Source of the DNA: a virus
Reading direction: 5' to 3' (one strand)
DNA: 64,000 nucleotides
UHGV virus genome: UHGV-1882326
A program made the translations under genes and the position numbers. The notes under the pieces are model-generated. The model had not been told where the DNA came from, did no database searches, and saw only the letters and a list, made by a program, of their open reading frames with translations. Below, piece by piece: positions 27,184-61,988 of this stretch. The first letter of the stretch is position 1. Every line of letters begins with the position of its first letter.

Positions 27184-28377
27184 TCATTGCTTGTTCTTAA
27201 CATCTAATACAATTTCTGTGTGATTTTTTCCTTGAAGTAAAGAATCTATTGCTTCTATAAGTTGTTGTTTTGTAGGAATTTCAAAATTTCCTTTTACTCG
27301 TAAAATTTTATATCCTTTACTTCTAACGAAATAATCTCTTCTTATATCTCTTTTTTTATTTACTTCTAAATTATGCCAATATTCTCCATCGTATTCAATA
27401 TCTATTTTTTCACCTTGTATTTCTAATAAGCAATCAAAAACCGCTCTTTCTAAAACAAAACCAAACGTAACTTTATAATTCGGATAAGTTTCTTTTACAA
27501 GCTCACAAAGTTTCTTTTCTGGCTTAGAAGAACGAACATTACCATTTTCAGCCATAGATTCTATTACTTTTTGTCTTATCTCTGGAACTTGCAAAATATA
27601 AGGTTTACCATACTTTTTTAAAACAGTTTGTACTGCTTTATTCCTTGTTTCTAAAGATTCAAAAGCACTTTTTCTACCATATTTTTTTAAATTAGTTAAT
27701 AATGCTCTTTCTCTTATTTCTGAAACTTGCATAGCGTTTGGTTTACCATATTTTTCAATCATGGTTTTTTGTGCTTTTTCTTTTACTTCTGGTATTTGCA
27801 TTGTATAAGGCTTCCCATATTTATTCAAATTATTTTGAACTATTTTTTCTTTTATTTCAGAAGAAGCAAAAACATTAGAAACGCCATATTTTTCTAAATT
27901 AGTTTGCTCAATTCTTTCTTTTATTTCGGGAACTTGTAATACACAAGGCTTTCCATATTTTTTTAAATTAGTCTTTTCTATTTTCTTTTGAATATCTCTA
28001 TTTTGTGCAGGAAAATCAACTCCATATTTTTTTCTGTTTGTGCTTTTTATTTTTTCTTGTACACCTTCTATCCCCATAGGAGTTGTTGTACCATATCTTT
28101 CTAAGAAAGTATTTTCTCTTTTTATTTGCGAACATTTTTTACAATATAACTTACCATCTTTTTCAGTGTTTTTTAAATACCCAACATAAGTAATATTTAA
28201 CTTTTTCCCACAAATATCACAAAATGCTATTATTCTTTTTTGAGAAGAAGGAGGTAAATCTTTAAGTTTAACTTTAAATTTATCAAATCTTTTGGTATAT
28301 TTATACCCTTTTTCAATATAATAGTTAAAATTTCTTCCTGCCCAAGTCATTTCAATTTCTTGGTTTTCGTCTATCAT
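27184..28377 (-). CDS. freestanding homing-endonuclease-like protein (Zn-ribbon, KYG repeats, C-terminal Vsr/DUF559-type nuclease domain)
   Basis: 397 aa. It has an N-terminal Cys4 ribbon (CDICGKK...CKKCSQ) and about eight ~33-aa repeats each containing KYG(K/V)P (e.g. KKYGKPCVLQVPEIKERIEQTN). The C-terminal ERAVFDCLLEIQGEKIDIEYDGEYWHNLEVNKKRDIRRDYFVRSKGYKILRV matches the DUF559/Vsr-like fold. It has its own promoter-like sequence and a terminator hairpin at 27100..27150. Confidence 0.6.
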   Translation of the reverse strand: MIDENQEIEMTWAGRNFNYYIEKGYKYTKRFDKFKVKLKDLPPSSQKRIIAFCDICGKKLNITYVGYLKNTEKDGKLYCKKCSQIKRENTFLERYGTTTPMGIEGVQEKIKSTNRKKYGVDFPAQNRDIQKKIEKTNLKKYGKPCVLQVPEIKERIEQTNLEKYGVSNVFASSEIKEKIVQNNLNKYGKPYTMQIPEVKEKAQKTMIEKYGKPNAMQVSEIRERALLTNLKKYGRKSAFESLETRNKAVQTVLKKYGKPYILQVPEIRQKVIESMAENGNVRSSKPEKKLCELVKETYPNYKVTFGFVLERAVFDCLLEIQGEKIDIEYDGEYWHNLEVNKKRDIRRDYFVRSKGYKILRVKGNFEIPTKQQLIEAIDSLLQGKNHTEIVLDVKNKQ

Positions 28378-32761: not shown

Positions 32762-33721
32762 TCATTGATTTCGTGACCGCTCCGCAGAATCAGAAATGGC
32801 TTCTTCACTTTGAGGTCTACCAACTTGTCCACTACCCCCACTCATGGTATGAATAGACAAAAGTTGTGATAAATTGTCTAAGAAATCACTATTATGTGCT
32901 TCTTCCAACATTCTCTCAAAATCCATAGGTTTATATCCAAAAGCAGAAGCATAAGCACTTGAATTAAGCACCATACCCACATCTGCTAATTTCATAATAG
33001 CATCTTGCTTCTTTTTACGCCAAAATGGTTGTGTACATCCATCAAACGTAAACTTAAACTTAAATTGTTTAGTTTTCTGATTAGCATAGAACTCTAAGAA
33101 ATTGTTAAATTGAGTATATAATTTAGCTACAATCTCATAATCAGCAGTAATAGCCGCTTGAAGTTCTTCGTTTGACATTCTATCCGTAGCGTAAATTAAA
33201 CGGCTTGCAGAACTACCATATCCCACTGTATCTTTAGCGGCAGTAGTAGCCATATCCGTATTTTTATCCTCAAACTGTTTAAATTCAACTTCTTCAAGAG
33301 GTAAGGCAATAGAACGAACAATTTTATCTTGTGTCATAGAGTTTTTCAATCCACTAGCAACAAGTTTCATTAATCGTCCTAATGTACTTGGTTTGACTGC
33401 AAATCTATCAGCAACCTCACCAGATTTTGCAGAATCTTGCATTTTCATCTCACCGTAAAGTATACCAAAAGCACTGGCAATATCTTTATTTTTTTGTAAC
33501 TTTGCAATCTCTGTGTTATTGAAAACATTCTTTAAATACGGAGCCATAAAAGGAACACTTGCAAAATTACTTGTGTCAAACTTGAAAGCCCAGAAACCAT
33601 CATTAGGACTTGTCTGGTGATAAAGAGTAAAAGTGCCGTCACGATTACTTAAACCATTTGACGGAATATAATCTTTAAAATCTTTACCATCCCATACTTC
33701 TCTAAGGTATTTCTTAAACAC
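32762..33721 (-). CDS. portal protein, C-terminal portion (putative exon 2)
   Basis: 319-aa ORF with a GTG-initiated ORF call. The reading frame stays open further upstream, to 33748. Together with the 214-aa ORF at 35528..36172 it gives a ~530-aa product in the canonical position between TerL and the scaffold. Confidence 0.5.
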   Translation of the reverse strand: MFKKYLREVWDGKDFKDYIPSNGLSNRDGTFTLYHQTSPNDGFWAFKFDTSNFASVPFMAPYLKNVFNNTEIAKLQKNKDIASAFGILYGEMKMQDSAKSGEVADRFAVKPSTLGRLMKLVASGLKNSMTQDKIVRSIALPLEEVEFKQFEDKNTDMATTAAKDTVGYGSSASRLIYATDRMSNEELQAAITADYEIVAKLYTQFNNFLEFYANQKTKQFKFKFTFDGCTQPFWRKKKQDAIMKLADVGMVLNSSAYASAFGYKPMDFERMLEEAHNSDFLDNLSQLLSIHTMSGGSGQVGRPQSEEAISDSAERSRNQ

Positions 33722-33837: not shown

Positions 33838-34962
33838 TTAAACACTTAAAATTCTCAATCCTTCATTCAAAATATTAATAGAAGCATTATTATCTCTATC
33901 TAATTTTGAACCACAGTTAGAACAAATCCAGTATCTAATCTCAACAGACTTTTTACCACCATTAACACCACAACAATGACAAATTTGAGAAGAAGGAAAA
34001 TATCTATCAATTACAGATAATATCTTTCCATACCATGTAGATTTATAAGTCAACATTCTACGAAATTCAGACCAAGAAACATCATTCACATGTTTATTAC
34101 GAACATTTGAGTCTGTACTTTTCATAGATTGAACATCTAAATCTTCAATACAAATAATATCATATTGTTTTACAAGATTAGTAGTCAATTTCTGTAAAAA
34201 GTCTTTACGTTGATTAGATATATGTTTTTGTAAATTTGCAACTTTAATTCTTGCTTTATTCCAATTAGAACCACCGATTGTTTTTCTCAATAACTCTCTT
34301 TGTAATTTAGCAAGTTTCTTTTCTGATTTTTCATAAAATCTAGGATTTTTAATCTTAACACCGTTAGATAAAATTGCAAAATCTACAATTCCTAAATCTA
34401 TCCCAACATTTTTATTTGTTTTTGGATATTGTGGAAATTCTATATCAGCGCAACATAATGAACAATAATAATGTCCGTTAGGTTCTTGTGATATAGTAGC
34501 ATTAAGTATTCTTCCTTGCGGAATTTGTTTATCGCGAATTTTTACACAACCTAATTTTGGAAGTTTAATATGTTTATTTTCAAATCTTATATTACCACCA
34601 GCTGTAGTTTTCATATAACTTGTAGTATAAGATTGATATCTATTTTTCTTAGACTTAAATTTTGGATACCCAGTATGCTCTTTAAAGAATTTTTGATAAG
34701 CATTATCTAAATTTTTTAATGAATTTTGTAAAGAACATTTATCTGGTTCTTTAAGCCATTCATTTTCTTTCTTTAATTGAGTAAGCATTTTACTTGTGTC
34801 ATAAAAGCTTAAACTCTTTTTATTTTCTTTATACTCAGTTATCTTTTTATCTAAAAAATAATTATAAACATATCTACAACAACCAAAAGTTTTTTGTATT
34901 AATTCTTGTTGTTTTTTATTCGGATAAATTCTATACTTAAAAGCTTTTTCCAACAATATCAC
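33838..34962 (-). CDS. tnpB: TnpB (IS200/IS605-family OrfB; RNA-guided RuvC-like nuclease)
   Basis: 374 aa. The N-terminus KAFKYRIYPNKKQQELIQKTFGCCRYVYN is the OrfB_IS605 helix. A RuvC-like split domain is followed by a C-terminal zinc finger CHCCG...CSNCGSKLDRDNNASINIL. Confidence 0.9.
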   Translation of the reverse strand: MILLEKAFKYRIYPNKKQQELIQKTFGCCRYVYNYFLDKKITEYKENKKSLSFYDTSKMLTQLKKENEWLKEPDKCSLQNSLKNLDNAYQKFFKEHTGYPKFKSKKNRYQSYTTSYMKTTAGGNIRFENKHIKLPKLGCVKIRDKQIPQGRILNATISQEPNGHYYCSLCCADIEFPQYPKTNKNVGIDLGIVDFAILSNGVKIKNPRFYEKSEKKLAKLQRELLRKTIGGSNWNKARIKVANLQKHISNQRKDFLQKLTTNLVKQYDIICIEDLDVQSMKSTDSNVRNKHVNDVSWSEFRRMLTYKSTWYGKILSVIDRYFPSSQICHCCGVNGGKKSVEIRYWICSNCGSKLDRDNNASINILNEGLRILSV

Positions 34963-36243: not shown

Positions 36244-38124
36244 TTAGAACACAAGTTGGTCTAACTCATCTAAATTGGTATCTCTTTGTTCATCTACAGC
36301 ATACTTATCGCCTATTAAGGTTGCAATATGGTTTCCGTAACTCAAAGCTACAATTTTATCCTTTGTCGCACTATTTCTGTTAGGTTCTGATAATTTCAAA
36401 ATACCGTTATTCCATGTTTGAGTTAAACTAATAGCTTCTGACATCATTAATGCAGTTTGAACATATGGCAACTTAATATTAACTTTTTCCTCAGAACTCA
36501 TAGTAAGATAATTTACATCTTCTTCAAGTTCTGTTTCAATCGTTAATTCATCCACCAAAAATTCAATCATTTCATTGTCTAGGGCTTTCTTTAAATCAAG
36601 CCACATTAAACTATTTCGTTCACTTGTACCAACAATAGGTATAATACATGGTATAGCTTCTGCATCAACTGTTTTGCCTTTAAGTTCTTGAATTTTAGCA
36701 TCTGGAACTATCTGTAAAGCAGATTCATAACAAACTGTAAATCCATGTGGATTCCAATTACTTCGTGATGGGTGTTCAAAGGGTTTAGATAACTCTGTAT
36801 AATAAAGAGTACCACCGCTTCTTTCGTCCATTACGATATAATCTGCTTGGTAATCCCAAAAGAACTCTCTAATCTTTTGTTGAAATCCCTCACTATCACT
36901 AGCAGGGTGCGTTCCAATATATTCTACTTTTCGTCTTGTCTTACCATCTTTCATAATGACAGACATACAACCAATAACACTATTATCGTTATCGTTTGTA
37001 TTGCTGTTTACAAAAGCATAATCAATGAAAAGTAAACGTTTTTCAAATTCACCTTTAGGTCTGTTACCTAAATCAGTTGACATAAATATATCCATAGGCG
37101 TAGGTGGTTTATAGGCTTTTTTTATCACTTGATTCTTTCTGAAATCTTCAAGTAAGAAGAAAGCACCCTCTGTTTCACCATACATTTCATTCAAATCTTC
37201 TGTTACAAAGTCAATATCTGAATCAAATTCTTTATCATGCCAGTAATCAGCCCATGTTTTAAGGTTAAATAAAATTGCAAGGAAAATATTAGATGCAAAG
37301 AAATTATATGTATGTTTCGTTTGTGTCATACACTTTTGAACTACAAGTTTAAATTCTTTCCAAAACCATTCATGTTTAAATCTAGCAGATGTAATATATG
37401 CTGTTTTACACTGTTCAATCCAACGTGGTAATGTTTTTCCGTCTTTATCCTTGTATTCGTCACGTAAGGTATAAGCCGCTTGTCTTGGATGCGCCATTTT
37501 AGAAAATACAGAATCAAGTATTGTCTTTTTAAGTAATCGACACTCTTCATATATAAGAAAAGTACTTCTCTCTCCCCTACTTGATTCCAAACAAGGCAAT
37601 ACAGTTATCATACTTCCGTTAATCTTTTTCAAGTCTACTTCTATAGCATCATTATTATAACGAAAGACAATATCTCCGTTATCATAATAATATTTTAAAA
37701 CAGATGAAAGTTTTTTACATAATTCATCTTCCATTTTCTTTTTAACCATCTTAGTAGCTTGGGGAATTGTGGAAGAAGTAATAACAACTTCGGCATATGG
37801 AAATAATAATGCGTGAACCATTCCTGCAAGAGCAATAATAAATGATTTACTTCCACCTCTGCTGCAAATTCCATACCATACTTGTGATATTCCAACTAAA
37901 TACAACATAACATGCTGAAACGGATAAAGTTTTATCTTTAATCTTCTTTCAGCATATATATTCCAATTACGTCTATAGAATGTTGTCCATTCCTTAATAT
38001 TTTTCTTTCTTTGTTCCCATGGTAATCTTCTGTCAGTTTTTTTCTTTTCTTCTTGTTTCTTCTTTCTTTTTTCTACAAGGCTAATAATATCTATATCTTT
38101 GTTTTCCTCTAACATAGACATCAC
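36244..38124 (-). CDS. terL: terminase large subunit
   Basis: 626 aa. Walker A-like motif GICSRGGSKSF. The C-terminal nuclease region has acidic motifs (FIDYAFVNSNTNDNDNSVIG). It is translationally coupled to the upstream gene. Confidence 0.85.
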   Translation of the reverse strand: MMSMLEENKDIDIISLVEKRKKKQEEKKKTDRRLPWEQRKKNIKEWTTFYRRNWNIYAERRLKIKLYPFQHVMLYLVGISQVWYGICSRGGSKSFIIALAGMVHALLFPYAEVVITSSTIPQATKMVKKKMEDELCKKLSSVLKYYYDNGDIVFRYNNDAIEVDLKKINGSMITVLPCLESSRGERSTFLIYEECRLLKKTILDSVFSKMAHPRQAAYTLRDEYKDKDGKTLPRWIEQCKTAYITSARFKHEWFWKEFKLVVQKCMTQTKHTYNFFASNIFLAILFNLKTWADYWHDKEFDSDIDFVTEDLNEMYGETEGAFFLLEDFRKNQVIKKAYKPPTPMDIFMSTDLGNRPKGEFEKRLLFIDYAFVNSNTNDNDNSVIGCMSVIMKDGKTRRKVEYIGTHPASDSEGFQQKIREFFWDYQADYIVMDERSGGTLYYTELSKPFEHPSRSNWNPHGFTVCYESALQIVPDAKIQELKGKTVDAEAIPCIIPIVGTSERNSLMWLDLKKALDNEMIEFLVDELTIETELEEDVNYLTMSSEEKVNIKLPYVQTALMMSEAISLTQTWNNGILKLSEPNRNSATKDKIVALSYGNHIATLIGDKYAVDEQRDTNLDELDQLVF

Positions 38125-39015
38125 CTAATCTTTCTTTCGTGGAATTAAAGGGTACTCCTTTGTACCTGCTATCAGATTCTTTACAGCAGAAACCACATAC
38201 TTAAACCAGTCAGCTTCAATATTGCAGAAATCCTTATATTTTTCCAAATCTTCACATTCACAAGGTTCAGTATTCTCTATTTCCCAAATCTGATGTTCAA
38301 GCATTTGTTCAGTTAAAGTCTTTTCTTTTTTCTGAGTAAAGTTATCAAGTTTTAAGGTTTTCATTAATTTTAAAACCATATCTTGTTCTTCTTTACCAGA
38401 ATTACCCATGTCCACTTCTTTTTTGTATCTTAATTCAGCAATACAAAGTTTACGATACAAACTCTCTTGTGCAGGTGTCAACTTAATATCATCAGTGTAG
38501 AATCCCCATCTATATTCAAGATAGGCATAATCTTCATCTGATTGCTCACCCCAGTCCAGAATTAAATCTTGTATATTTAATTTACGTTGCGTTTCTTCAT
38601 CATTGGAAGTCATAGAATTTCTATCTACATCTGTTTGTCCAAAACAATCCCATTTGTCTGATTTTTTCTTTAAAGCTAAAAAAGTTACATAATACTGTCC
38701 CCAGTAGTTATATGTACTAGACAAAGTACCCTCTTCTCTTTCTTTTTCAACTTTTTCCATCAAACCATCATATACTTTTTGTATAAACGGTATTCCTATC
38801 TCAGCACATGTTGACCATAAAGCTAACTTAATATCTCCGTATTTATTGTAATAGTTTTGATAAATCGTTTTACAACAAGTGGTACAATAAGGAACTACTT
38901 TATTTGCATGGTTTGGATTGTCAGATTTATAGAATTTCTTAATATCATAAGGTCTGTTGCAACGAATACAAAACGATTCTGTTATGGGTCTTTCTTTTCT
39001 TATAATGGTTGCCAT
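38125..39015 (-). CDS. putative terminase small subunit / DNA-packaging protein
   Basis: 296 aa. Its stop abuts the TerL start. It has an N-terminal Cys cluster (CIRCNRP...CTTCC) and an acidic C-terminus. Function is assigned by position only. Confidence 0.35.
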   Translation of the reverse strand: MATIIRKERPITESFCIRCNRPYDIKKFYKSDNPNHANKVVPYCTTCCKTIYQNYYNKYGDIKLALWSTCAEIGIPFIQKVYDGLMEKVEKEREEGTLSSTYNYWGQYYVTFLALKKKSDKWDCFGQTDVDRNSMTSNDEETQRKLNIQDLILDWGEQSDEDYAYLEYRWGFYTDDIKLTPAQESLYRKLCIAELRYKKEVDMGNSGKEEQDMVLKLMKTLKLDNFTQKKEKTLTEQMLEHQIWEIENTEPCECEDLEKYKDFCNIEADWFKYVVSAVKNLIAGTKEYPLIPRKKD

Positions 39016-39053: not shown

Positions 39054-39572
39054 TTATTTGCCTTTCTTTTTCTCTACGAACTCGACATAATCTGGTTCAA
39101 GCATTTCAGCTAATCTTTTTTGCTTTCTTACTCTTTTTTGCTTTTCTATCATTACTTCTCTTTGAAATTCTGGTTTTACAGCTTCTTTTACTTTAGCCGC
39201 AGACTTATTTTTTACCTTTAATGACGGTTCAAGGTTGTTTAAATATCCTTTGAGATATTCAGAGGTTTTAAATCTAACCATATACGTCAATGGTATCATA
39301 ACGTTATTTTTTTGTTTCGTCTGAATATTATATACTCTCTTGATTACACCCCCGCAAGTGGAAATCTTAAAAGTACCAATATTAGGAATATTGAAATAAC
39401 CGTTATTTTTTATTTCATCTGCCATAATTTCAATAAAAGTTTTCATACATAACTTAGCCATTTCAGTTGTGAAACTTGGTTTAGTTTTTTTAACTGAAAT
39501 GGCTATCAGTTCTGCAAGTTCGTTAGGGCTTAAAGACTTAACAATAACACCATCTTTATTAGGTCTTGCCAT
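39054..39572 (-). CDS. HU/IHF-family DNA-binding protein with C-terminal basic extension
   Basis: 172 aa. A histone-like fold (LSPNELAELIA...FTTEMAKLCMKTFIEIM...IPNIGTFKIS) is followed by a lysine-rich tail. Confidence 0.5.
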   Translation of the reverse strand: MARPNKDGVIVKSLSPNELAELIAISVKKTKPSFTTEMAKLCMKTFIEIMADEIKNNGYFNIPNIGTFKISTCGGVIKRVYNIQTKQKNNVMIPLTYMVRFKTSEYLKGYLNNLEPSLKVKNKSAAKVKEAVKPEFQREVMIEKQKRVRKQKRLAEMLEPDYVEFVEKKKGK

Positions 39573-40958: not shown

Positions 40959-42248
40959 ACCTTACACTCCTAGTGAACTACTACAAAATTAAAAACCTCG
41001 TAATTTCTTGCTTCAACGTCCTCGTAACCTACTAACTCCACAAGCGTAAATTCCGATAGTTCCTACCGTACTATTTATTATTAAGTTGCACTTAAAATTC
41101 TTAGTCCTTCATTTAATATATTAATTGCGGCATTAATATCTCTATCATGCACAGTACCACATTTAGAACATCTCCACTGACGTACAGATAAATTCTTTGT
41201 ATCTTTATTAATATAACCACATACATTACAAGGTTGACTTGACTTTGTAAATCTATCAATCTTTATATATGTGCGTCCATTCCAATCAGATTTATAACTT
41301 ATCTGTCTTGTCAATTCATACCAACCACAATCAAGTATTGATTTTGAAAGATTATGATTTTTCACCATATTAGAAATTGCTAAATCTTCACTAACTATTA
41401 CTTGGTTTTCGCTAATAAGTTTATATGAAATTTTATGCAAATAATCTATTCTGGTATTTTTAATTTTTTCATATACTTTTGCAAGTTTGATTCTTTGCTT
41501 CTGATAATTCTTACTACCTTTTTCTTTATGAAAAAGTTTACGCTGTTCTTTAGCAAGTTTTTTCTCATATTTTTTAGTAAGTTTAAGATTATCAAACTTT
41601 TCTCCATCAGAAGTTATAAGTAAATCCTTAATGCCTAAATCAATTCCAATAGAATTGTTTGTATGCTCTAATGAAATATGTTCTGTTTCTATTAAAATAG
41701 ATACAAAATATTTACCAGAGGGAACTTGCGAAATAGTAGCAGATTTAATTTTTCCAGTAAATTCTCTATGAATTTTTGCTTTCACCCATTTAAGTTTTGG
41801 AAGTTTAATTTTATTGTTATCAAAAGAAACTTCAATATTATTATTTGCGAAATTTGTTTTATAAGATTTTTTATTATCTCGTTTGCTTTTGAACTTTGGA
41901 TAACCAGTATGTTCTTTAAAGAATTTTTGATAAGCGGAGTCCATATTATAAATGGAATTTGTCAAAGACCATTTATCAACCTCTCTAAGCCATTCATATT
42001 CTTTTTTTAGTTGTCTATTACAATAGTTATTCAAATCAATTTTACTCATAGAAACACTTTCATTTTTATATTTATTGATTTTAAGATTTAAACACTGATT
42101 ATAAACAAACCTGCAACAGCCAAAAGTTTTTTGGATTAAAATTTTTTGTTCTTTGTTTGGATATAATCTGTATTTATAGGCTTTTAACATTTACTTATCA
42201 CCTCCAATCTATTTATATTATATATTCTACTACATTTTCATTAACTTG
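40959..42248 (-). mobile_element. IS605-family (IS1341-like, tnpB-only) insertion in an intergenic site
   Basis: It carries tnpB copy 2, a 58-bp upstream region with a -10-like TATAAT, and a 122-bp 3' region conserved with the 3' region of copy 1. No tnpA is present. Confidence 0.6.
41081..42190 (-). CDS. tnpB: TnpB (IS200/IS605-family OrfB)
   Basis: 369 aa. It starts MLKAYKYRLYPNKEQKILIQKTFGCCRFVYNQ and ends in the zinc finger CNVCG...[19 protein letters not shown]. It is paralogous to copy 1. Confidence 0.9.
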   Translation of the reverse strand: MLKAYKYRLYPNKEQKILIQKTFGCCRFVYNQCLNLKINKYKNESVSMSKIDLNNYCNRQLKKEYEWLREVDKWSLTNSIYNMDSAYQKFFKEHTGYPKFKSKRDNKKSYKTNFANNNIEVSFDNNKIKLPKLKWVKAKIHREFTGKIKSATISQVPSGKYFVSILIETEHISLEHTNNSIGIDLGIKDLLITSDGEKFDNLKLTKKYEKKLAKEQRKLFHKEKGSKNYQKQRIKLAKVYEKIKNTRIDYLHKISYKLISENQVIVSEDLAISNMVKNHNLSKSILDCGWYELTRQISYKSDWNGRTYIKIDRFTKSSQPCNVCGYINKDTKNLSVRQWRCSKCGTVHDRDINAAINILNEGLRILSAT

Positions 42249-42923
42249 TCAACCATTTTCATGCAATTTCTTTAAATTTTCTATTATTAAATCACCGACA
42301 ACAGCCCAACAAAAGTATTTATTCTTATTCTGCCCATAACATAAATCAAGCATAATATTAACAAGTCTGTCTTTGTTTGGACAAATTTCTTCTGCTCTTG
42401 CTCTAAATTCATGCTGTATGCTCATTACTCTTATATTTGCTTCTTCTGTACTTAAATTTTTCTCAATCACAATTTTCTTAAATTGCTTAATACGTTTAAT
42501 GTATTCTTTTTCAAGATTTTCAATATCTTCTCTTGTTTTAGGTGAACTTCTTTGAATAGGAGATTTAAGAAATTCATAATCAAAGCCTTTGGCTTTAAGT
42601 TCTGTCACTCTACCATCAAATTCACTTTCTATATATCGACAAATTCGGTTCATAGTAGAATCAGAAATGTTTACAGGCATTTTTATATCGTACCATTCTA
42701 AAAATTTTTGCTGTTCTTCTGTAAGATTTTGTTTTTTTCTTAGTTCATTTACTTTACAGCCATAAAGCATAACACATTTAAGGTCACAATTTTTTATATA
42801 ACTATCGTAATCTTTCTTTAAAGAAGAATAATTATAAATAAAGTAATAAGGCTTTTTATCTGTTACGATTATTTTATCTAATGTAGTGGTACATAATTTT
42901 GAAACATACCAATACTTAGGCAT
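42249..42923 (-). CDS. hypothetical protein
   Basis: 224-aa ORF. Confidence 0.3.
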   Translation of the reverse strand: MPKYWYVSKLCTTTLDKIIVTDKKPYYFIYNYSSLKKDYDSYIKNCDLKCVMLYGCKVNELRKKQNLTEEQQKFLEWYDIKMPVNISDSTMNRICRYIESEFDGRVTELKAKGFDYEFLKSPIQRSSPKTREDIENLEKEYIKRIKQFKKIVIEKNLSTEEANIRVMSIQHEFRARAEEICPNKDRLVNIMLDLCYGQNKNKYFCWAVVGDLIIENLKKLHENG

Positions 42924-42927
42924 TTCC

Positions 42928-43140
42928 TTACATACAATTCCTTTTAATTTCCTTTATACCCTCTGTCACCAGATATTTATTGGGGGAGTAGACTATCTCT
43001 TCACTTAATATTTCTATTAAGGTTCGGCACTTCCAAACAAGGACTTTCACCTTGAATGTACTGGTTTCATAATCTTTATACAAAGACCGTATACCATAGT
43101 CGTTACACCGTTCAAAAACGTCACCGTTTAAGCTTGGCAC
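42928..43140 (-). CDS. small hypothetical protein
   Basis: 70-aa ORF. Confidence 0.25.
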   Translation of the reverse strand: MPSLNGDVFERCNDYGIRSLYKDYETSTFKVKVLVWKCRTLIEILSEEIVYSPNKYLVTEGIKEIKRNCM

Positions 43141-43152
43141 GATATTGAGTTA

Positions 43153-43956
43153 TTACAAATATAAGCTAAACAATTCTTTTTGTGGAGCATATTCTCCATA
43201 ATATTCTTTTTCAGCTATAAGTCTTGTTTTTATAGCTTCTTCTTTTGTATCAAATCTTCCTAAATTTATTCTTTTATAATTATACCCTATTCTAGCTATC
43301 CATTTATTTTCTCTCTTATTATAACAAACACCAGAAACACCAGAAGTATTATTTTTATGTGTTGAAGCATTTTTCGCATTTTCGCTAGGAGAACAAATTC
43401 TTAAATTATTTTCTGTGCAATCATAAGTATTTCTATTTATGTGGTCTACAATTTTATCTTTCATTATTCCATTTGTTTTTGCAACTTCCACATCTTTAAA
43501 ATATATTAATCTGTGTAATATTAAATTTTCTCTTGTTTCTCCTTTTTTGTTTCGATTATCTCCTAAATGCGCTCTGGCATATTTTTTATATGCGAACCAA
43601 TAAAATTGAGAAACCAACTCATAATTTTTTAAATCTATTTTTACTTTTTCTAATGAATTATTAAAACATAAGAAGCAGTAATCTTTTCCTTCTGGAAAAA
43701 TATATTTATTTTCTTTTTTACGGCTTTCTGAAATTTTATTTCTTCTTTCTAAATTTCTTTGTTCTTTATTGCACTCACAATCTATAATTTTATTATTATT
43801 AAGATAAGTTCCTTTTATTGCTTGTACTCTACCACATAATTTACATTCACAGTCAAAATAGGATATTTTATTTTTACTACTTAATTCTTCGTTTATTTTT
43901 ATTACATACCATGTATCAAATGTTAAGCCTTCTAATTGTAATCTCTTATTTGACAT
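43153..43956 (-). CDS. HNH homing endonuclease with AP2 DNA-binding domain
   Basis: 267 aa. HNH motif VDHINRNTYDCTENNLRICSPSENAKN. AP2-like segment SGVSGVCYNKRENKWIARIGYNYKRINLGRFDTKEEAIKTRLIAEKEY. Confidence 0.75.
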   Translation of the reverse strand: MSNKRLQLEGLTFDTWYVIKINEELSSKNKISYFDCECKLCGRVQAIKGTYLNNNKIIDCECNKEQRNLERRNKISESRKKENKYIFPEGKDYCFLCFNNSLEKVKIDLKNYELVSQFYWFAYKKYARAHLGDNRNKKGETRENLILHRLIYFKDVEVAKTNGIMKDKIVDHINRNTYDCTENNLRICSPSENAKNASTHKNNTSGVSGVCYNKRENKWIARIGYNYKRINLGRFDTKEEAIKTRLIAEKEYYGEYAPQKELFSLYL

Positions 43957-44067
43957 AATCTCCTTTCTTTATATTTTATAATAACTCTTCCATCGTTAGC
44001 AAGATTTTTATAATCTCACACCCTATATTTATAGGTTCACCGAATTTTACTTGAACTCAACAAAAAG

Positions 44068-44355
44068 TCAATCCAAGGTATTTTGCTGATATAACTGCCC
44101 ACACAAAATACGTTTTGATAATTCTTTATATTCATTAGTGTTTTCATTAAATAAAGCCAATTTATCTATTTGTGCTGATACTCTATTAGTGATTGTTCCA
44201 ACTTCTGAGCCTAAACCCATACGGTTACTTTTTCTAATATCATTTCTTTTAACAACTTTCTTCTCGCCTTTACGTTGCACACAATCAATAGAATTTGTAT
44301 ATCTGTAAGTATTTAAAAGTATATTATTATTCGTGGAATAAATTGTGTCACTCAT
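44068..44355 (-). CDS. small hypothetical protein
   Basis: 95-aa ORF. Confidence 0.25.
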   Translation of the reverse strand: MSDTIYSTNNNILLNTYRYTNSIDCVQRKGEKKVVKRNDIRKSNRMGLGSEVGTITNRVSAQIDKLALFNENTNEYKELSKRILCGQLYQQNTLD

Positions 44356-44560
44356 TATTACCGCCTATTTCTAGGTACTTTAACATTGATTTAACAATCG
44401 GTTTAGGTCATATCATCATAGTTTAAAACTATGGAAGGCACTTCGATTTAAAGGAATTTCACCTACTATATTGCTATAGCCCTACTTCTATTGCTCTGTT
44501 TAACGACTGAGCCAAGGAATGACCGTCTGACTTTTATAAATATTTACATTACTTTTTTAA

Positions 44561-45130
44561 TCAATAATTCCAAATTTCTCTAGTTACAACTCTTTTAACC
44601 AAATTCCATTTATTCTTTTGTTTTCTATAGGTATCTAATTCTGGATGCATAATTCTTACTATTTCCATTACGGTTTTACCTTCGTCATATAATCTTCTTA
44701 TTTTCTCTACATCTTCACCTGTATATTTTGCTCTACCATTATTTTCACCTTGTCTACCCTTACAATAAGTTTCATAATTATTTTTAATAGTATAAGCAAT
44801 ATTTTCAACATGTGTTATCCATTCAAGATTTTCAAAATAACTATCTGTTCTTATAAAATTTTTATGATTAACTTCTAAAGGTTCGTCTGTTTCTGGTTTT
44901 GGAACAAATACCATAGCAACAACACGGTGTACAGTTATAGACCGTCTATTTTTAAGATTGCCTAATGTTACTATTGGATAACCGTCTGGATTTAGTCTTT
45001 GTTTGACCATTCCTCTTTCTGGTGCTATAATTCTTCCGTAATTGCTTACTTTATATTTTAGCCCATTAAATTCCCAATCTTTCCATTCTTCTGGCTTTCT
45101 TTTAGGGGTTAATCTTTTTGAATTTTTCAA
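44561..45130 (-). CDS. HNH homing endonuclease (NUMOD4-HNH type)
   Basis: 189 aa. NUMOD4-like YKVSNYGRI. HNH core VHRVVAMVFV...EVNHKNFIRTDSYFENLEWITHVEN. Confidence 0.75.
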   Translation of the reverse strand: MKNSKRLTPKRKPEEWKDWEFNGLKYKVSNYGRIIAPERGMVKQRLNPDGYPIVTLGNLKNRRSITVHRVVAMVFVPKPETDEPLEVNHKNFIRTDSYFENLEWITHVENIAYTIKNNYETYCKGRQGENNGRAKYTGEDVEKIRRLYDEGKTVMEIVRIMHPELDTYRKQKNKWNLVKRVVTREIWNY

Positions 45131-45328
45131 TTACTATACCTCCTTATCTTAAGCAATGTAAATATTTATACTTAGCACAGGATTATCTTGCTGTTCCACT
45201 CAGTTTAGACTTCCCCTGTTAGCATATTCATTCATTGTCATTTCCTACAATTACTAATTCGTTGAATATACACCCAACTCTGTTGGTTCACACTTCTGCG
45301 TTGTACATTTAGTACAAAGGACTAACAT

Positions 45329-46843
45329 TTAATCAAAGTCACAACCGTTCAATGCCATACATGTAGTATCCCAATCATTTAACACCATCATTGTATTAGA
45401 ATATTTATACCATTCTTGACATTTTTTATCATTGTTTACTCTCATTTTTCTAATATTATTATGTGAAGTCATAGGAGAACGAAAGCAAACTACTTCATTC
45501 ACACCTTTATCAGCCCAGTATTGTGAATATATTTCATTAGCTTTAAGCAGACCAGTGATTTCTAACCCATATATACTTTGCATTAAAGCATAAGGGTCTC
45601 CCATAACTATCTGATAATTTCCCTCAACTTTTAATTTACCAATCTTAGCTTGATTAATCTTTTTCTTAATCATCTTGTTAATTCTATCAATCACATAAGG
45701 GTCATTCATCATTCTTTCGTCTAAATACAACGCCTGTGCATAATCTTTAGTTTTAGTTTTTTCACCAACTCCTAAAAATTCTTTTGTTTTTTGGTAATCA
45801 CCGCCAAACGCCATTTTTAGCCAGTCAACAGTAGGTTTACACAATTCCACAATTTGTTCATCTGTCAGTTCATAACTTTGCAAATACTGATAATTTGTTT
45901 CTCTTGTATCCTCTAACTTTTTAGGTGTTACTTTTGTAGCAGAAAACCTATATCCATTTTCATAATAACACTTGTGGTATTCTTCCCAACTAGAATAATT
46001 ATCCCATAGTTTAAGACTGGATTCAGTGATAATCATATCCACATCTCGAATATCTCTTTCAGTACCCCAAATATCTTTTACTTTATATCCCTTACCAACT
46101 TCCTCAGCAAATTTTATAATCTCAAAGACATTCAACATACCTTTCATATAAGCATTTCTTAAACAAATACCACTTGGCAAATAATCAAGACCTAATTTAT
46201 CAGCAACTCTTTGCATATATTCTGGTGTACAAAGATTCATGCCGTCACTGCCGTTGTTTTCCAACTCTACACCAAATTTTTCCTCAACGATAGGTTCATC
46301 TGTTTCACTATCATCAATCCTAACCACTTCACCCTTAAATTTAGTGATACAATCTCGTACAACCAATACAGAGCGTGGTTCTGGTATCTCAACGGACGCT
46401 GAATAGGTCAGAGCAATATAAGCCTCTAATTTAGCCGGTATAGCCTTGTAATCTTTCTTCCTACCACAATCAGTCCTTTTAATTAACTCTGGTAAAATAT
46501 CTTCTCTCACAAACAATAAAGTATTATTTTTAAGACCACCAGTAGTTCCAACAACCCACAAAAACCTTTTACCATTTAAAATCACACCAGTTTTAGACGT
46601 AACTTTGTCATAGTCACTCATTGAGGAAATCTCCACAGCAAGCATTAAATCCGTCATATCTTGCTTGTATCGTTTGTTACCTATAATTGTAATTAAATCT
46701 ATCAGTCGAAATGCTTGTGAATCAAATAAGTCAATCAATTCGTCTAAACGAACTGCCAATTCTTTAGATAAAGTAATCTGCCAGTTATTCATTCGGAATC
46801 GTTCAGACGAAATCTTGAAAATCTTTCTACGTTTATTTTGCAT
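45329..46843 (-). CDS. hypothetical large protein, first gene of the leftward operon (possible replication or nucleic-acid enzyme)
   Basis: 504-aa ORF with a strong RBS AAAGGAGG. No motif was confidently recognised. Confidence 0.3.
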   Translation of the reverse strand: MQNKRRKIFKISSERFRMNNWQITLSKELAVRLDELIDLFDSQAFRLIDLITIIGNKRYKQDMTDLMLAVEISSMSDYDKVTSKTGVILNGKRFLWVVGTTGGLKNNTLLFVREDILPELIKRTDCGRKKDYKAIPAKLEAYIALTYSASVEIPEPRSVLVVRDCITKFKGEVVRIDDSETDEPIVEEKFGVELENNGSDGMNLCTPEYMQRVADKLGLDYLPSGICLRNAYMKGMLNVFEIIKFAEEVGKGYKVKDIWGTERDIRDVDMIITESSLKLWDNYSSWEEYHKCYYENGYRFSATKVTPKKLEDTRETNYQYLQSYELTDEQIVELCKPTVDWLKMAFGGDYQKTKEFLGVGEKTKTKDYAQALYLDERMMNDPYVIDRINKMIKKKINQAKIGKLKVEGNYQIVMGDPYALMQSIYGLEITGLLKANEIYSQYWADKGVNEVVCFRSPMTSHNNIRKMRVNNDKKCQEWYKYSNTMMVLNDWDTTCMALNGCDFD

Positions 46844-54184: not shown

Positions 54185-54256
54185 AGGGCATTAGCCAAGC
54201 GGAAAGGCAAAACACTTTGACTGTTTCATGCGTAGGTCCGAATCCTACATGCCCTG
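54185..54256 (+). tRNA. tRNA-like element, possible tRNA-Gln(UUG) with atypical T-loop
   Basis: A cloverleaf can be drawn with a 7-bp acceptor stem AGGGCAT/ATGCCCT and a D-arm GCC-aagcggaaa-GGC. The anticodon stem AAACA/TGTTT carries the loop CTTTGAC (anticodon TTG). The T-arm GTAGG-TCCGAAT-CCTAC has C where the near-universal U55 is expected. Confidence 0.45.
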
Positions 54257-55189: not shown

Positions 55190-55263
55190 GGAACAATATT
55201 TCAACTGGTTAGAAAGTTCGGCTCATAACCGAAAAGTTATAGGTTCGAGTCCTATTTGTTCCA
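55190..55263 (+). tRNA. tRNA with CAT anticodon (elongator Met or Ile-lysidine type)
   Basis: Acceptor GGAACAA/TTGTTCC, D-stem TTTC/GAAA, anticodon stem TTCGG/CCGAA with loop CTCATAA (CAT at 55224..55226), T-arm ATAGG-TTCGAGT-CCTAT, discriminator A. It is not initiator-like, having a 1:72 G:C pair and no GGG/CCC in the anticodon stem. Confidence 0.8.
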
Positions 55264-55515: not shown

Positions 55516-56627
55516 ATGTTGGTAGCATACAAATACAGATTGTATCCGAATAAAGAACAACAAGAATATTTTGCTAAATGTTTTGGGTGTGTACGATTTA
55601 TCTATAATCGTATGCTTTCAGATAAGATTGACTATTATAAAGAAACAAAGAAAAAGCTGAATAATACACCTGCTCAGTACAAGAAAAAGTTTGAGTGGCT
55701 AAAAGAAGTAGATTCACTTGCATTAGCAAATGCTCAAATGCTCAAATGAATTTGCAGACAGCCTATAACAATTTTTTCAAATGTCCAGAAGTGGGTTTTC
55801 CAAAATTCAAAAGCAAGAAGAATAATCACTTCTCTTATACTACAAATAATCAGGGAGGAAACATTTATGTGACAGACCGATACATAAAACTCCCTAAGAT
55901 TGGACTTGTTAGAGTTCGGAAACATAGAGATTTTGAAGGACTAATTAAGTCTGTTACTATTTCTAAAAGTCCGTCTGGTAAATACTTTGTTTCAGTATTA
56001 GTAGACCAAAAAGATAAAGAAAAATTAATTCCAAACAATAACCAAATTGGAATTGATTTAGGTATTAAAGAATTTTGTATTACTTCTGATGGAGAGATGA
56101 TTCAAAATCCAAAGTTTCTTAGAAAGTCTGAAAAGAAATTAAGAAAATTACAAAAGGATTTATCTCGTTGTCAAAAAGGAAGTAAAAATAGAGAAAAATG
56201 CAGAATTAAAGTCGCAAGACAACATGAAAAGATTGCAAATCAACGTAAAGATTTTCTACATAAGTTATCTAGGCGATTTATTAATGAAAACCAAATCATT
56301 GCATTAGAAACTTTGAAAATTAAAAATATGATGAGTAATCATAAATTAGCAAAATCAATAGCAGATGTATCATGGTCTGAATTTGTAAGACAATTAGAGT
56401 ATAAGGCTCAGTGGTATGGTAGAGAAATCGTAAGGATTGATACTTGGTATCCATCAAGTCAGATATGCTCTAATTGTGGTCACAAAGACAGAAGAAAGCC
56501 ATTATCAGTAAGAGAATGGATCTGTCCTAATTGTGGTACACATCATGAAAGGGATATAAATGCAGCTATAAATATTCTTAAAGAAGGTTTGAGAATTAAA
56601 ACGGCAGGAACTGTCGAGATAGTCTAA
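55516..56627 (+). pseudogene. tnpB: tnpB copy 3 (IS605-family), frameshifted by an 8-bp tandem duplication
   Basis: It is split into 55516..55749 (MLVAYKYRLYPNKEQQEYFAKCFGCVRFIYNR) and 55695..56627 (RuvC-like domain plus zinc finger CSNCG...[19 protein letters not shown]). The sequence TGCTCAAA occurs twice in tandem at 55731..55746, and removing one copy restores a single ~370-aa frame. Confidence 0.85.
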
Positions 56628-57902: not shown

Positions 57903-58326
57903 TAAATTAAGAGAAGCAAAAAAAGGTAAACTTACCAAAGAAGAAAACGCCATTAAACAAGTTTCAGCATGTATAAAAGCATGGGAAAATAATGAACCTG
58001 CGACACTTAGCACTGAAACAATGAAAACAATCCTTAAAACTTTAAAAGAAATAAAAGATTTTCGTGATGTTGGCAACGTAAAAACTATAAAAGAATTAAA
58101 AAAACTCAGCCTTAAACGTCAGCCTAAAAATCTTAATAAAAAATATTGTGACTATAAAGTTGACGATGAAGAAATCCATTCTTTCTATGGCATCTGCCCC
58201 AACTGTGAGCAACCATTAAATTTCTACTGGCATCAGAAATATTGCGGTAACTGTGGACAAGCCCTTATCTGGCGAAACTTAAAGTCAGTCATAAGCAAGA
58301 AAGACCTTGACAAAATCATAAAGTGA
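57868..58326 (+). CDS. hypothetical protein with C-terminal zinc ribbon
   Basis: 152 aa. CPNCEQPLNFYWHQKYCGNCGQ. Confidence 0.35.
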   Translation: MLSESELFNMIDKLREAKKGKLTKEENAIKQVSACIKAWENNEPATLSTETMKTILKTLKEIKDFRDVGNVKTIKELKKLSLKRQPKNLNKKYCDYKVDDEEIHSFYGICPNCEQPLNFYWHQKYCGNCGQALIWRNLKSVISKKDLDKIIK

Positions 58327-58342
58327 CACGTTCACATTTTTA

Positions 58343-58385
58343 AACCCCTTAGTAACACAAAGTACAAGGGGTTCTTTTTTATTTT
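58343..58385 (+). terminator. rho-independent terminator of the rightward operon
   Basis: AACCCCTT-(15 nt)-AAGGGGTT followed by CTTTTTTATTTT. Confidence 0.7.
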
Positions 58386-61300
58386 CAACCAAGTTATTAC
58401 ATTCAGAACAAAAATCCCCTATATCCTCTTTCTACCGATTGTTACCGCCCTAAATCAGAATAAATCCCCCTAACTCAGAACACGAGATTTCACCCTATAT
58501 TGCAAAACGCCATATGAAGCCCAAGGGAGAAATTATTTGCAATGTCCTATAAATTGGACACCTAAAACACTAATGAAAATTATTTAAGACTTGAAACATT
58601 GCAATTCGCCCACTCGAAAACGCCTACGCAAAAACCATTACTTTTCGACTATAGGGGGTCAAGACACTTTTCGCCAATAGTTCTTTTTAGAACCATTTTT
58701 CCGTTATTCATAAATTTTAATAACGAACAGTGAAATGACAAAACACCTGTCTTTACAACTGACAAGACATCTGACAAGACATTTCTCAATTTTCCACTAT
58801 GGTTATGATATACCACTCTCCCCTAAATTTAGCTACCTGTGACTACTCTTATATACCGTTACAACTCATTTAAGCACCCCTAGAAACGATTTTAATAGAT
58901 AAGACGATTAACTTATCATGTGAAAACTGAAACGCCCACATTTGCCTTGTACTGTTTCATATAAAAAGTGACACATTATCATGCTTTTAAAACCTCTACA
59001 GAAATAATAGTCGAATATTAAACCAGTATACTGGTATACGGCGAATGACCCTTATCCCCCAGTACACAATTACCCCCCTCTATCAGATAATATATTATCT
59101 ATTGTAAAGAGTAGATGACTAAGAGATAGAACTACAAGAATTATAAGAATAGATAAGAGATAAGAGGATTGAGAACTGGATAATATGTTGGCTATTACAT
59201 ACTCGTAAATGTTGCAACCTCCTATTCCGTGTTATCACCTACACCTATAAAACCACTAGACATAAAGAGCAAAATGATACACATATTTTCGTCACATATA
59301 TCTTAAATATTCTTAGACGATTTACTGTGTATTATTGTGGTGAGAAATGATATGAAAAGTATATGGGGTTAAGGTGGTGTAAAAATGGTCTGGGATAGGT
59401 ATGGGGAAATATTATCTCTCATATGTGTTATATATAATATATTAAGATTGAAATAGGTGGGTGAAATATGGGACGAGTAAATAAAAATGAATGAGGGGTT
59501 AATAAGTAGGAAACGGTGAAGTGATGAGAGATGAAAAACTAAGGATTGATATGAACATAAGGATTTAGGAATATAGAGAGCAGAAGGATATATAAGGATA
59601 TATGATATAAGGTGAGAGTGGGCGTGAGTGGGTGTGGAGATAATGATGATAGTTGGGATAGAGCAATAGCAATGGGGGATAGGGGGTAACAGGAGCAATA
59701 GATAGAGAGATAATTGAAATACTATGAATATTGACAAATATTGAGTTGTGGGAGTGTGCGGTGTATCAGCTATTCCGAGTATGCGAAAATCGTATATACG
59801 AATTGTCTGAAAATACCCCCCGGTTATACGTGACTAACAGAATGAGTGTTCGACTAGCCCAGGGGAGGGGGCGATATACTCTGCCCGCATAGGTTCGGAA
59901 CGTCAAAAAACATGGCTATAATAAATCATTATAGACACGTTTGTATGCAAGCGGTTGCACAAAATTGCATATTGCGTTGCATATAATAGAAAGTATTAGT
60001 GAAAGTGATATTTTTTCATAGATATATTTATTGAAGTTATAAGTATATGTTAAAATATTGACGTAATAAGATAATGTTATATATGTGATACCGCACATAG
60101 TATCAGACATCATCCTATCCTTTATCTTCTATCCTCTGCTTTCCCTTCTTAATGTTTCACATGAAACAATATATCTAATCCAGTTCAACTCATATCTATA
60201 TTATATTATTCCGTTTCCGCTTTCCCATCTTACAATCAATCCCACTTGCTATCATATCTCAAACCATATCACGCCATAACACATACCACCACACAACATA
60301 CCCATACCATCTTACATAGTAACAATAACCACATACATAGTATTCAATACTACTTGTAATCTTACTCATATCCCATATCATGTTTTACAATACTATCTCA
60401 TATCCCTATTAATCCACTATGTTAATATGTTACCCATAAACCCATTATCCCTATAGGTTAATATATAAATCATAAACCCTATAACATACTATGTAATAGG
60501 TATTTTATAAACCCATTAACCAACTATGTTATTGAATTATAACATAATTATATGAGTTGTTGTTATTGATATCATTTTAGGCAATACTTTTATCGCAACG
60601 GCTCAATTTTAGTCAATACTTAAAATTTGTACGAAAACTATTGGCATTTTAGCAATAATGATACACACTAAAACGTTTAATATATATATTATATATGGCA
60701 CGAAAATGTATGTGTTATTGTTTGAAAAATTGCTACAATTTTCATTATGTTAGCACAACTCCAATTTTTTGGTTTACATAAGGCGTGAATATTCAGACGC
60801 AATTTGAATTTTAGAATAATTTAGCTGTACTTATTAATAAGTGGCGTTTTTAATAAGTGTATCTAATAATAAATGGCAAGCGATCCAATGCCGGATTTAT
60901 GTAAATGCCGTTTAAAGCCCTTAGAAGCCGTTTTAAAGCGTTTTAGGGCTTTCAAAGCATATTTTATCATTAAATGTTTTCCAATCGAAACTATGTTATG
61001 TGGTATTGAAAACTACGTTATTATCTGACAATTTGGCACTCATTAGTGGTAAGTGCTAATAAGTAAACATATGTGAATTATTGCCATATATGAATAGTAA
61101 ATAAATGTTTATTAATGGGCTTCTAACATAAAAGCAAAAACACCTATATAAGCAATGGGGCTTGTATGTATGCTTACTTATATATATGTATATATGCATA
61201 GTGTTTTATATGGGACTTGCATATGCTTTTATATAGTAGTCTGCTTTTTTTTGTAAATCCCTTATATATAGGAAGTAATACAATCGAATAAATGTTTTTA

Positions 61301-61494
61301 TGAAAAATGTATAAAAAAATATATGTTTTTTGGTAGTTTTTACCATTGAGTATATATATACTTTTTGCTATACTTGCATTATCAAATGAATCAAATCATT
61401 TCCATATCGGAAATATTAAGAATATACGTTCTGTATATTCCAAAAAAAATAAAATTAAACATTAAATCATACATATAAAAGGAGAAGAAAAGCT

Positions 61495-61988
61495 ATGCAA
61501 AATATTACATCTGCAATTACATCAATAAATTCAAAAAAAGCCCCCGCCATTTATTCAATGCCAAAAGCTATTGAGTTAATGAAGGGGAAGAAGGTTATTG
61601 ACATAGGGGGGGGAGATATGATACCGCTGTATCTAAAGCTAGTGAATATGGCGCAACGGTAGCAATATACGATCCTTATAACCGCACCGCTGACCATAAC
61701 GCTATTGTTTTAAAAAACACTTATGATGTTGCTGTAATAAGTAATGTGTTAAATGTCATTCCCGACTTAGACAGCCGGTTAAAAGTTCTTAGTTTGGCGT
61801 TGAGTAAAGCGCACACTGTACTTATTACTGTATATGAGGGCGACAAAACAGGCATAGGCAGACAGACAGGAATAGACAGTTGGCAAGAAAACAGAAAACT
61901 TAATGATTATTATAAAAATATTAAATCATTTTTACCAAACACTAAAAAATGCGGAAAAATGATTGTAATAAAACGCAATTCTAATTAA
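61495..61988 (+). pseudogene. SAM-dependent methyltransferase gene interrupted at a G8 homopolymer (candidate phase-variable gene)
   Basis: ATG 61495 with an AAAGGAGAAG RBS. The frame stops 23 codons after the poly-G tract at 61606..61613. With one extra G it reads through to 61988 as a 164-aa protein. That product carries motif I VIDIGGGRYD, an acidic VAIYDPY and motif DVAVISNVLNVIPD, typical of class I SAM MTases. Confidence 0.6.

Follow-up and report, generated by a model that had tools for sequence, protein, structure and literature searches.

A conserved block of mirrored strand composition in large gut siphophages, tentatively assigned to the initiation of DNA packaging

What is the block of extreme strand asymmetry that lies between the genes of the virus genome UHGV-1882326? 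To address this question, we analyzed a 64-kb stretch of this genome (the window, to which all coordinates refer), which represents most of a phage genome of ~100 kb. Behind a leader of lesser note on its left, the block is made up of a G-rich arm, a compositionally mixed centre of ~420 bp and a C-rich arm. It is a real, conserved and unusual cis element, and most likely a packaging-initiation (pac) region of a variant type. That it serves as the pac region in a lineage of virulent siphophages with genomes of ~100 kb, which infect Enterocloster and related Firmicutes of the gut, is the explanation that we favor, although with somewhat less than even confidence. Among the observations in its favor are these: the layout recurs in every complete related locus, the centre is kept in sequence while the arms are kept in composition, and a DNA end mapped in an isolated relative falls next to the C-rich arm.

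How strong is the asymmetry? On the + strand, the left arm (59327..59686) is G-rich and C-poor, with 117 G, 12 C and 70% purine, and its C-depletion runs on to ~59760; the right arm (60108..60417) is C-rich and G-poor, with 92 C and 12 G, and is followed by a milder G-depletion to ~60530. The GC skew, computed in 200-nt windows, is +0.63 to +0.77 in the left arm and −0.65 to −0.77 in the right arm. These are the top G-rich/C-poor and C-rich/G-poor segments of the entire 64 kb (scores of 46.4 and 25.1), and neither score was reached in 200 shuffles of the window, the maxima of which were 13.5 and 18.6, respectively. An initial annotation, made from the sequence alone, had described an extreme alternating asymmetry over the whole of 58400–60560. 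This description holds for the two arms and fails to their left: the 58400–59100 segment, called almost devoid of G, has 83 G in 701 nt (11.8% vs. 13.9% in the window) and a skew of only −0.34. The C-depletion assigned to 59100–59760 is present from 59327 to 59686 and on to ~59760, and absent from 59100–59300 (skew of about 0.03–0.06), while the near absence of G assigned to 60060–60560 is found in 60108–60417, the depletion beyond being the milder one. All strings quoted in that annotation were found in the window.

Is the element kept in related phages? DNA matches in a phage collection were weak, and all of them were to phages of Enterocloster bolteae (CB457P2, CB473P2, PMBT24 and CB457P1). 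Pattern scans with conserved strings recovered relatives on nine IMG/VR contigs (mostly 83–106 kb) and 17 human-gut metagenome contigs; about 27 loci—from gut metagenomes, IMG/VR and the isolated E. bolteae phages—carry the core and the centre described below. Conservation in related phages had been suggested from the start as a check on the block, and the succession of G-rich arm, centre and C-rich arm is indeed present in every complete related locus, in an order that is constant relative to the core. The G-rich arm measures 340–550 nt across loci, the centre about 300–450 bp (up to 535) and the C-rich arm 250–450 nt. CB457P2 and PMBT24 share this architecture with a still stronger skew, up to +0.87 and −0.94, and an arm GC content of up to 52%; the G-rich arm of CB457P2 begins about 200 nt past the last gene. 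Two of the contigs with the core (L039 and L040) come from binned metagenome-assembled genomes labeled “Bacilli bacterium” and “uncultured Bacteroides sp.”; misbinning of phage contigs may account for both.

The loci fall into two clades, with the window in clade A. Within clade A (six loci), the whole 3-kb gap between genes is 85–100% identical, except for the proximal C-rich arm, which is mosaic at 50–88%. Between the clades, the similarity of the arms does not exceed that of shuffled sequences, although the depleted base still makes up about 3% of each. The centre, by comparison, is ~65% identical between clades, against 14–30% in a shuffled null. Arm sequence is lost while arm composition and centre sequence are kept, and we therefore conclude that what is selected is sequence in the centre and composition in the arms. 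Furthermore, the flanking proteins are not conserved between the clades and the core is, which gives it the look of a cis-acting site.

The two arms mirror each other in base composition only. Diverged inverted copies of one low-complexity unit, as first proposed, are not supported: no significant inverted repeat joins the arms, and arm-to-arm complementarity is limited to short 70–80% matches, no better than in composition-matched shuffles. Of the mirrored structure for which skew and a dot-plot had been suggested as checks, the part in composition is there and the part in sequence is not. A GATAC(A)CCGCACA match, noticed by eye at both inner boundaries in clade A, did not beat shuffles and was not relied on. 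Could the arms instead be nonfunctional low-complexity DNA, generated by slippage or mutation bias beside a functional core? They do contain micro-duplications of 7–10-nt units, they evolve fast and they carry indels. However, both arms are present in all complete loci, with polarity and similar length kept despite full turnover; G has been gained at the expense of C and T, which deamination does not yield; and the boundaries are sharp, one of them matching the mapped DNA end. We consider this explanation extremely improbable. True tandem arrays were looked for in the arms and rejected, the micro-duplications being all that was there.

In the direction away from the centre, each arm has a 5′→3′ strand that is G-free and C-rich, and the partner of this strand is G-rich and C-free. 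Outward-reading strands contain 30–47% C and about 3% G over 250–450 nt, and inward-reading strands 33–38% G, about 3% C and 70% purine; the arms are 65–70% purine or pyrimidine, not pure, and their GC content of 35–52% compares with about 30% for the genome. With folding energies of −0.5 to −3.5 kcal/mol per 100 nt, the G-free strands are almost structure-free, against a background in 340-nt windows of −17.5 ± 4.4 kcal/mol per 100 nt, of which the least structured reached −6.1; the complementary C-free strands are likewise under-structured. An oriented degenerate motif, TTCCCAT/CCCATATC (ATGGGAA on the G-rich strand), is present in the arms at ~2–2.5 times the frequency in dinucleotide shuffles. 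Spacings of 10–11, 21, 32–34 and 43–44 nt between TCCC pairs are somewhat enriched, and the arms have a weak periodicity with peaks at 5.5 and 7.5 nt. A polar distribution of the motif along the genome was rejected as a signal, its orientation merely following that of the genes. Three degenerate direct repeats of ~36 nt lie on the + strand at the distal end of the right arm (60423..60531), and a palindrome, TGTTTCACATGAAACA (60153..60168), is conserved in both clades, with clade A having it in the proximal part of the arm and clade B in the distal part.

The conserved centre (59687..60107), of mixed composition and kept in sequence in both clades, reads as a set of predicted protein-binding sites. 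It contains the core TCGTATATACGAATTGTCTGAAA (59790..59812, + strand), which is single-copy in the window, is invariant across clades as TCGTATAT-CGA-TTG-CTGAAA and provides a signature for finding relatives. After an A-run comes the palindrome CTATAAT-aaatc-ATTATAG (59916..59934), which in clade B reads CATAAT...ATTATG; it is changed on both sides between the clades (the pair 165/181 is UA in five sequences and CG in four) and is probably the binding site of a dimeric protein. A TGCAA/TTGCA cluster (59946..59981), restricted to clade A, looks like an operator and holds the three TTGCA motifs that had been noted initially, at 59955, 59965 and 59977. Directly before the inferred cut, and ending at the arm, is an AT-rich stretch (59985..60087) with a GC content of 18% and only 2 C. 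Arms and centre are together enclosed by a bracketing inverted repeat, with its left copy TTTTCGTCACATATAT at 59286..59301 (clade A only) and its right copy ATATATGGCACGAAAA at 60692..60707, within a 38-nt pair (59273–59310/60682–60719) that is 76% complementary. The repeat is a perfect 16-mer in locus L010 (6142–6168/7652–7678), has two mismatches in the window and was not found in clade B.

Where do DNA ends of these phages lie relative to the element? PMBT24 was sequenced from a TruSeq library and analyzed with PhageTerm, and its genome is reported to be terminally redundant and circularly permuted, with a single significant peak that is confined to one strand; the phage was classed as pac-type, and its pac site was set as the start of the genome map, without mention of skewed arms in the paper (PMC11035940). 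When we joined the ends of the PMBT24 record, the junction between CAAAATATG and AGATACATTCACCC fell 5 nt short of the C-rich arm. Three independent contigs (L020, L029 and L004) cover this junction without a break; sequence continues across the mapped end, and the window likewise runs through the element, as circular permutation would have it. The homologous point in the window, placed by alignment with an uncertainty of a few nt, is at about 60087/60088. By a rough estimate of our own, the chance that a random position in a 100-kb genome lies ≤10 nt from any of the four arm edges is under 0.1%, and we therefore regard the element as truly tied to a physical DNA end.

These data also bear on the initial suggestion of a pac site or a recombination hotspot, which finds real support: the PMBT24 pac terminus is at the junction of centre and C-rich arm, and among close relatives no segment is more mosaic than the arm beside the inferred cut. 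Headful packaging from a pac site calls for a cis-acting sequence shared among relatives with common packaging machinery, and the core and centre are such a sequence. Among the metagenome loci L018–L034, about half of the contigs with the core end inside the element (e.g., L019, L022, L026, L031 and L032), at points scattered over arms and centre and not at the cut; they have the look of assemblies that broke off in hypervariable or oddly composed DNA, and not of physical ends.

How might such a pac region work? Packaging proteins would assemble on the conserved centre, with its invariant core, palindrome and AT-rich stretch; the candidate binders are terminase and perhaps the phage HU-like protein. 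The concatemer would be cut at the junction of the centre and the C-rich arm, and headful packaging would begin there. Both arms would be under selection for composition, not sequence. Each end arising from a central cut would have a G-free 5′-ending strand and a G-rich, C-free 3′-ending strand, as in telomeres and in the orientation of Chi. Because the arms mirror each other, both ends of a cut in the centre or at its edge would have the same polarity, whichever direction packaging takes. We infer that the arms programme how these ends are handled—perhaps as oriented, degenerate TCCCAT-type arrays on which the packaging complex assembles, and also as hairpin-free single strands that would ease resection, strand annealing or strand invasion and the loading of phage RecA or annealing machinery. 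The ends could then feed circularization or recombination-dependent replication. The gene set of this phage group includes RecA, a RecJ-like exonuclease, Gam, a DnaB-like helicase, primase and Pol III alpha, and the mosaicism of the arm beside the cut fits a recombination-prone end.

Taken one step further, and by analogy with the polarity of telomeres or Chi, the arms may constitute a new end module: a polarized, hairpin-free sequence that flanks the terminase cut and fixes the fate of the end (fast resection, protection from host AddAB and loading of phage RecA or annealing proteins) for circularization or recombination-dependent replication. We regard this extension as unlikely on present evidence; were it true, the complete turnover of the arms with kept skew would be explained, because selection would act on composition alone.

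Several points weigh against a role in packaging. The element (59.3–60.5 kb) is about 22 kb from the gene for the large terminase, TerL, and is neither in nor next to terS; pac sites usually lie in or beside terS, although that location is usual rather than obligatory. A pac site needs no two-fold symmetry, and the symmetry observed therefore points to a process that treats both sides alike. The binding of proteins to the element is a prediction. The terminus was measured in PMBT24, a clade B relative, and its placement in the window by alignment is loose there; moreover, the published peak could be a nick and not a packaging end, and it does not fix the direction of packaging. The one significant peak contrasts with the two termini of a short direct terminal repeat, and the size of the centre (310–420 bp) resembles the 378 bp of such a repeat in phage phiCD211. 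Motif enrichment and periodicity in the arms are modest, and some arms in the set are related to each other. Finally, TerL has distant relatives, at 23–28% identity, in SPbeta (YonF), phiCD211 and the Lactococcus 949 group, and we found no such arms beside the phiCD211 terminal repeat or within SPbeta, of which the first 100 kb were covered; terminases of this type therefore do not generally need them. The arms appear to be an innovation of this gut-phage lineage, and the literature that we searched contained no description of mirror-skewed arms.

Which process would treat both sides alike? One is bidirectional replication from an origin, a role that the initial annotation had also listed (for lytic replication), in which the centre would be opened with the help of its AT-rich stretch and DnaB-like helicases would move 5′→3′ on G-free, hairpin-free lagging-strand templates. 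A two-fork process is well suited by two-fold compositional symmetry, and the strands on which a 5′→3′ helicase would travel are structure-free. The centre offers an 18% GC stretch (59985–60087), palindromes and operator-like repeats; the phage group has its own Pol III alpha, primase and DnaB-like helicase; and the element heads the early/replication gene block. However, there are no DnaA boxes (TTATCCACA) at ≤1 mismatch in the window's element and none enriched in its relatives, and no clear iteron array is kept across both clades, in which the repeats and palindromes are clade-specific. The skew of the top strand, G-rich and then C-rich, has the polarity of a bacterial terminus and not of an origin. 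The arms are GC-richer than the genome, and hence are not unwinding elements. The sole experimental datum, moreover, is a virion DNA end. We think an origin unlikely as the explanation of the element, though the block could house both an origin and a pac site.

The composition of the outward-reading strands brings in a function at the RNA level. Divergent transcripts from the centre would be G-free, C-rich and untranslatable RNAs that load Rho (rut RNAs), serving as insulators or timers or as a sponge for Rho or another RNA-binding protein. C-rich, G-poor and unstructured RNA is the known signature of rut sites, the loading sites of Rho-dependent terminators, and the outward strands of both arms display it over more than the required length of at least about 80 nt. 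Selection on composition rather than sequence is also as for rut sites, and the start codons ATG, GTG and TTG, like a Shine–Dalgarno sequence, are impossible because the strand is G-free. Yet no sigma70-type promoter with the same position and direction in both clades was found at either inner boundary, a leftward transcript would be antisense to about 11 kb of + strand genes, and the weak helical-type spacing of the arm motif points to recognition of duplex DNA. Such a transcript-level role seems to us distinctly unlikely.

Transcription in the inward direction would have a different outcome: a purine-rich, C-free RNA that remains hybridized to its pyrimidine-rich template, giving an R-loop that primes replication or keeps polymerases out of the packaging site. 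The usual predictor of R-loops, a strong positive GC skew of the nontemplate strand, is present, the inward strands having the high G, low C and purine contents given above (33–38%, about 3% and 70%), and a candidate inward promoter with 10 of 12 matches lies at the outer edge of the right arm (60575–60547, − strand). But GGGG is under-represented in the arms of the family (56 vs. 78.6 expected), and a search of the window for four G-runs of at least 3 in a short span, with loops as long as 12 nt permitted, gave no G-quadruplex match. No inward promoter is common to both clades; indeed, they share no sigma70-type promoter of equal place and direction, whether inward or outward. The upstream operon is also stopped by an intrinsic terminator before it reaches the element. 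We rate an R-loop element as very unlikely.

Other identities were tested and set aside. Polypurine–polypyrimidine tracts able to form triplex or H-DNA, proposed in the initial annotation, do not fit: purine runs in the block reach at most 11 nt and pyrimidine runs at most 12 nt, shorter than runs elsewhere in the window. Nor does the template of a structured noncoding transcript, another of its proposals: no Rfam family matched, the consensus RNA fold of the centre is weak (−7.6 kcal/mol) and the G-free strands are nearly structure-free. Rfam searches at the gathering threshold and at E ≤ 5 returned only two tRNAs, elsewhere, plus chance hits. KOPS, SRS and known Chi sequences (GGGNAGGG, GAGAAGGG, AGCGG, GCTGGTGG and GNTGGTGG) occur in the arms at or below shuffle expectation, although the known Chi sequences may not be that of the host. 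The claim that stop codons occur in all frames is only roughly true: the G-free strands hold open frames of up to 122 aa, which are unremarkable because TAA is the sole possible stop on a G-free strand. Protein-coding arms were rejected, the open frames being within the shuffle range and in no consistent frame, as was a protein-coding centre, since its 65-aa frame is missing from L008, L010, L027 and clade B.

How is the element placed among the genes? Late genes occupy 1–46843 on the − strand and include those for the tape measure protein (13941–18602, −), the portal (32762–33721, −) and TerL (36244–38124, −). Between TerL and the gene for an HU/IHF-like DNA-binding protein lies a 296-aa open reading frame (ORF) without a family match (38125–39015), a candidate small terminase; the HU/IHF-like gene itself (39054–39572, −; Bac_DNA_binding, E 3.5e-9) is two genes upstream of TerL. 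Small genes on the + strand follow from 47327 on. Of these, the last before the element ends at 58326 and the next starts at 61495, leaving a gene-poor gap of ~3.1 kb. The block initially described as ORF-free at 58400–60560 is confirmed as gene-poor, and the gap is even larger, from ~58330 to 61490. The + strand genes upstream are closed by the intrinsic terminator (58343..58385, +), a stem AACCCCT...AGGGGTT followed by a T-run, which a simple terminator scan missed because its loop exceeds the limit of the scan. Between terminator and element, the noncoding 58400..59300 stretch, with a mild excess of C over G, is 85–100% identical in six clade A loci (59087–59187 being identical in all six). 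Its conservation exceeds that of the downstream genes, no Rfam family matches it, and clade B has no counterpart.

On the other side, the leader from the C-rich arm to the next genes (60560–61490) is full of short repeats, with TTTTAG(G/T)CAATACT at both 60574 and 60606, and contains several TTGACA/TATAAT-like pairs; it is probably a regulated early-promoter region. In CB457P2 and PMBT24, the corresponding leader has GCACTAAA/TTTAGTGC repeats in both orientations (L001 7130–8130). A conserved motif, TTCCAATCGAAACTATG (60979..60995, +), is situated past the element and ahead of the promoter-rich leader to the next + strand genes.

Mobile endonuclease and transposase genes are unusually numerous in the late region. 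A YonO-like single-subunit RNA polymerase appears to be encoded by a split gene (42249–46843, −): 45329–46843 resembles residues 78–514 of SPbeta YonO (E 3e-23) and 42249–42923 residues 668–790 (E 0.006), and the two HNH endonuclease ORFs between these parts (44561–45130 and 43153–43956) suggest invasion by an intron or intein. Two IS605-family “transposase” ORFs (phrog_506; 41081–42190 and 33838–34962, both −) are situated amid the packaging and head genes, as is a homing-endonuclease ORF (phrog_12131/3339; 27184–28377, −) among the head genes. In the + strand block, a further protein of this kind, TnpB-type with OrfB_IS605 and Cas12f-like TNB domains (55695–56627, +; E 3e-30), is encoded 2 kb upstream of the element. 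The same block holds tRNA-Gln(TTG) at 54185–54256 and tRNA-Met(CAT) at 55190–55263; tRNAs are reported to be absent from PMBT24 (PMC11035940).

Why does such an element matter? Hardly any cis-acting sites are known in gut phages, and sequence motifs are usually the only means by which packaging sites are found. The element described here can be recognized from composition alone, is better conserved than the neighboring genes and is tied to a mapped DNA end. If its arms direct end processing or packaging, selection would here act on strand composition rather than on sequence, which would be rare among viral cis elements. The arms would then also provide a simple computational signature for the genome ends of uncultured phages and a handle for transducing or engineered phages of Enterocloster and Lachnospiraceae.

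How does the element compare with known systems? Like rut sites, the arms are C-rich, G-poor and unstructured on one strand, with composition selected and not sequence; unlike them, they are four to five times longer and form a mirrored pair, and the promoter comparison gave no sign of transcription. Chi (RecBCD/AddAB), KOPS/SRS (FtsK/SpoIIIE) and telomeres have in common with the arms a G-rich strand that runs 5′→3′ toward the centre from both sides, and an exonuclease entering at a central cut would meet a G-rich 3′-ending strand, as with Chi. However, the known Chi sequences of Firmicutes contain C, which the arms lack.

Among phages, phiCD211 of Clostridioides difficile is likewise a large siphophage of a Clostridia host, with a TerL that is 23.5% identical. 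It has direct terminal repeats of 378 bp (PMC5557969), and the ends of its record are identical. This repeat matches the centre of the element in size, but it lacks skewed arms alongside, and the phage has two termini and is not pac-type. The left end of T7 offers a parallel in composition: SRL consists of ~180 nt of degenerate 7-nt CCTAAAG-like repeats, is C-rich and G-poor on the 5′-ending strand and has a skew that we measured at −0.4 to −0.63. The T7 succession of end, repeats, early promoters and early genes also resembles that of centre, C-rich arm, promoter-rich leader and early genes. T7 differs in having exact terminal repeats and two termini, where PMBT24 has one, and the asymmetry of the element is much stronger and its arms longer. 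A mirrored analogue in the T7 concatemer junction was considered and rejected, since the right-end array SRR has the same orientation as SRL and little skew.

The closest kind are the pac sites of SPP1, organized as pacL-pacC-pacR, and of P1, with hexamer clusters on both sides of the cut. Here the arms, at 300–450 nt each, are several times longer, are set by strand composition rather than by repeated sequence boxes and turn over completely between relatives; the element is also about 22 kb from the terminase genes, and the cut is at an arm edge, not in the middle of the centre. The likeness lies in the following: a noncoding recognition region with a cleavage point and two flanking arms; one fixed end in a fraction of circularly permuted virions, as seen in PMBT24; and a DNA-bending protein, which here is a phage-encoded HU-like protein and for which P1 and lambda make comparable use of IHF or HU.

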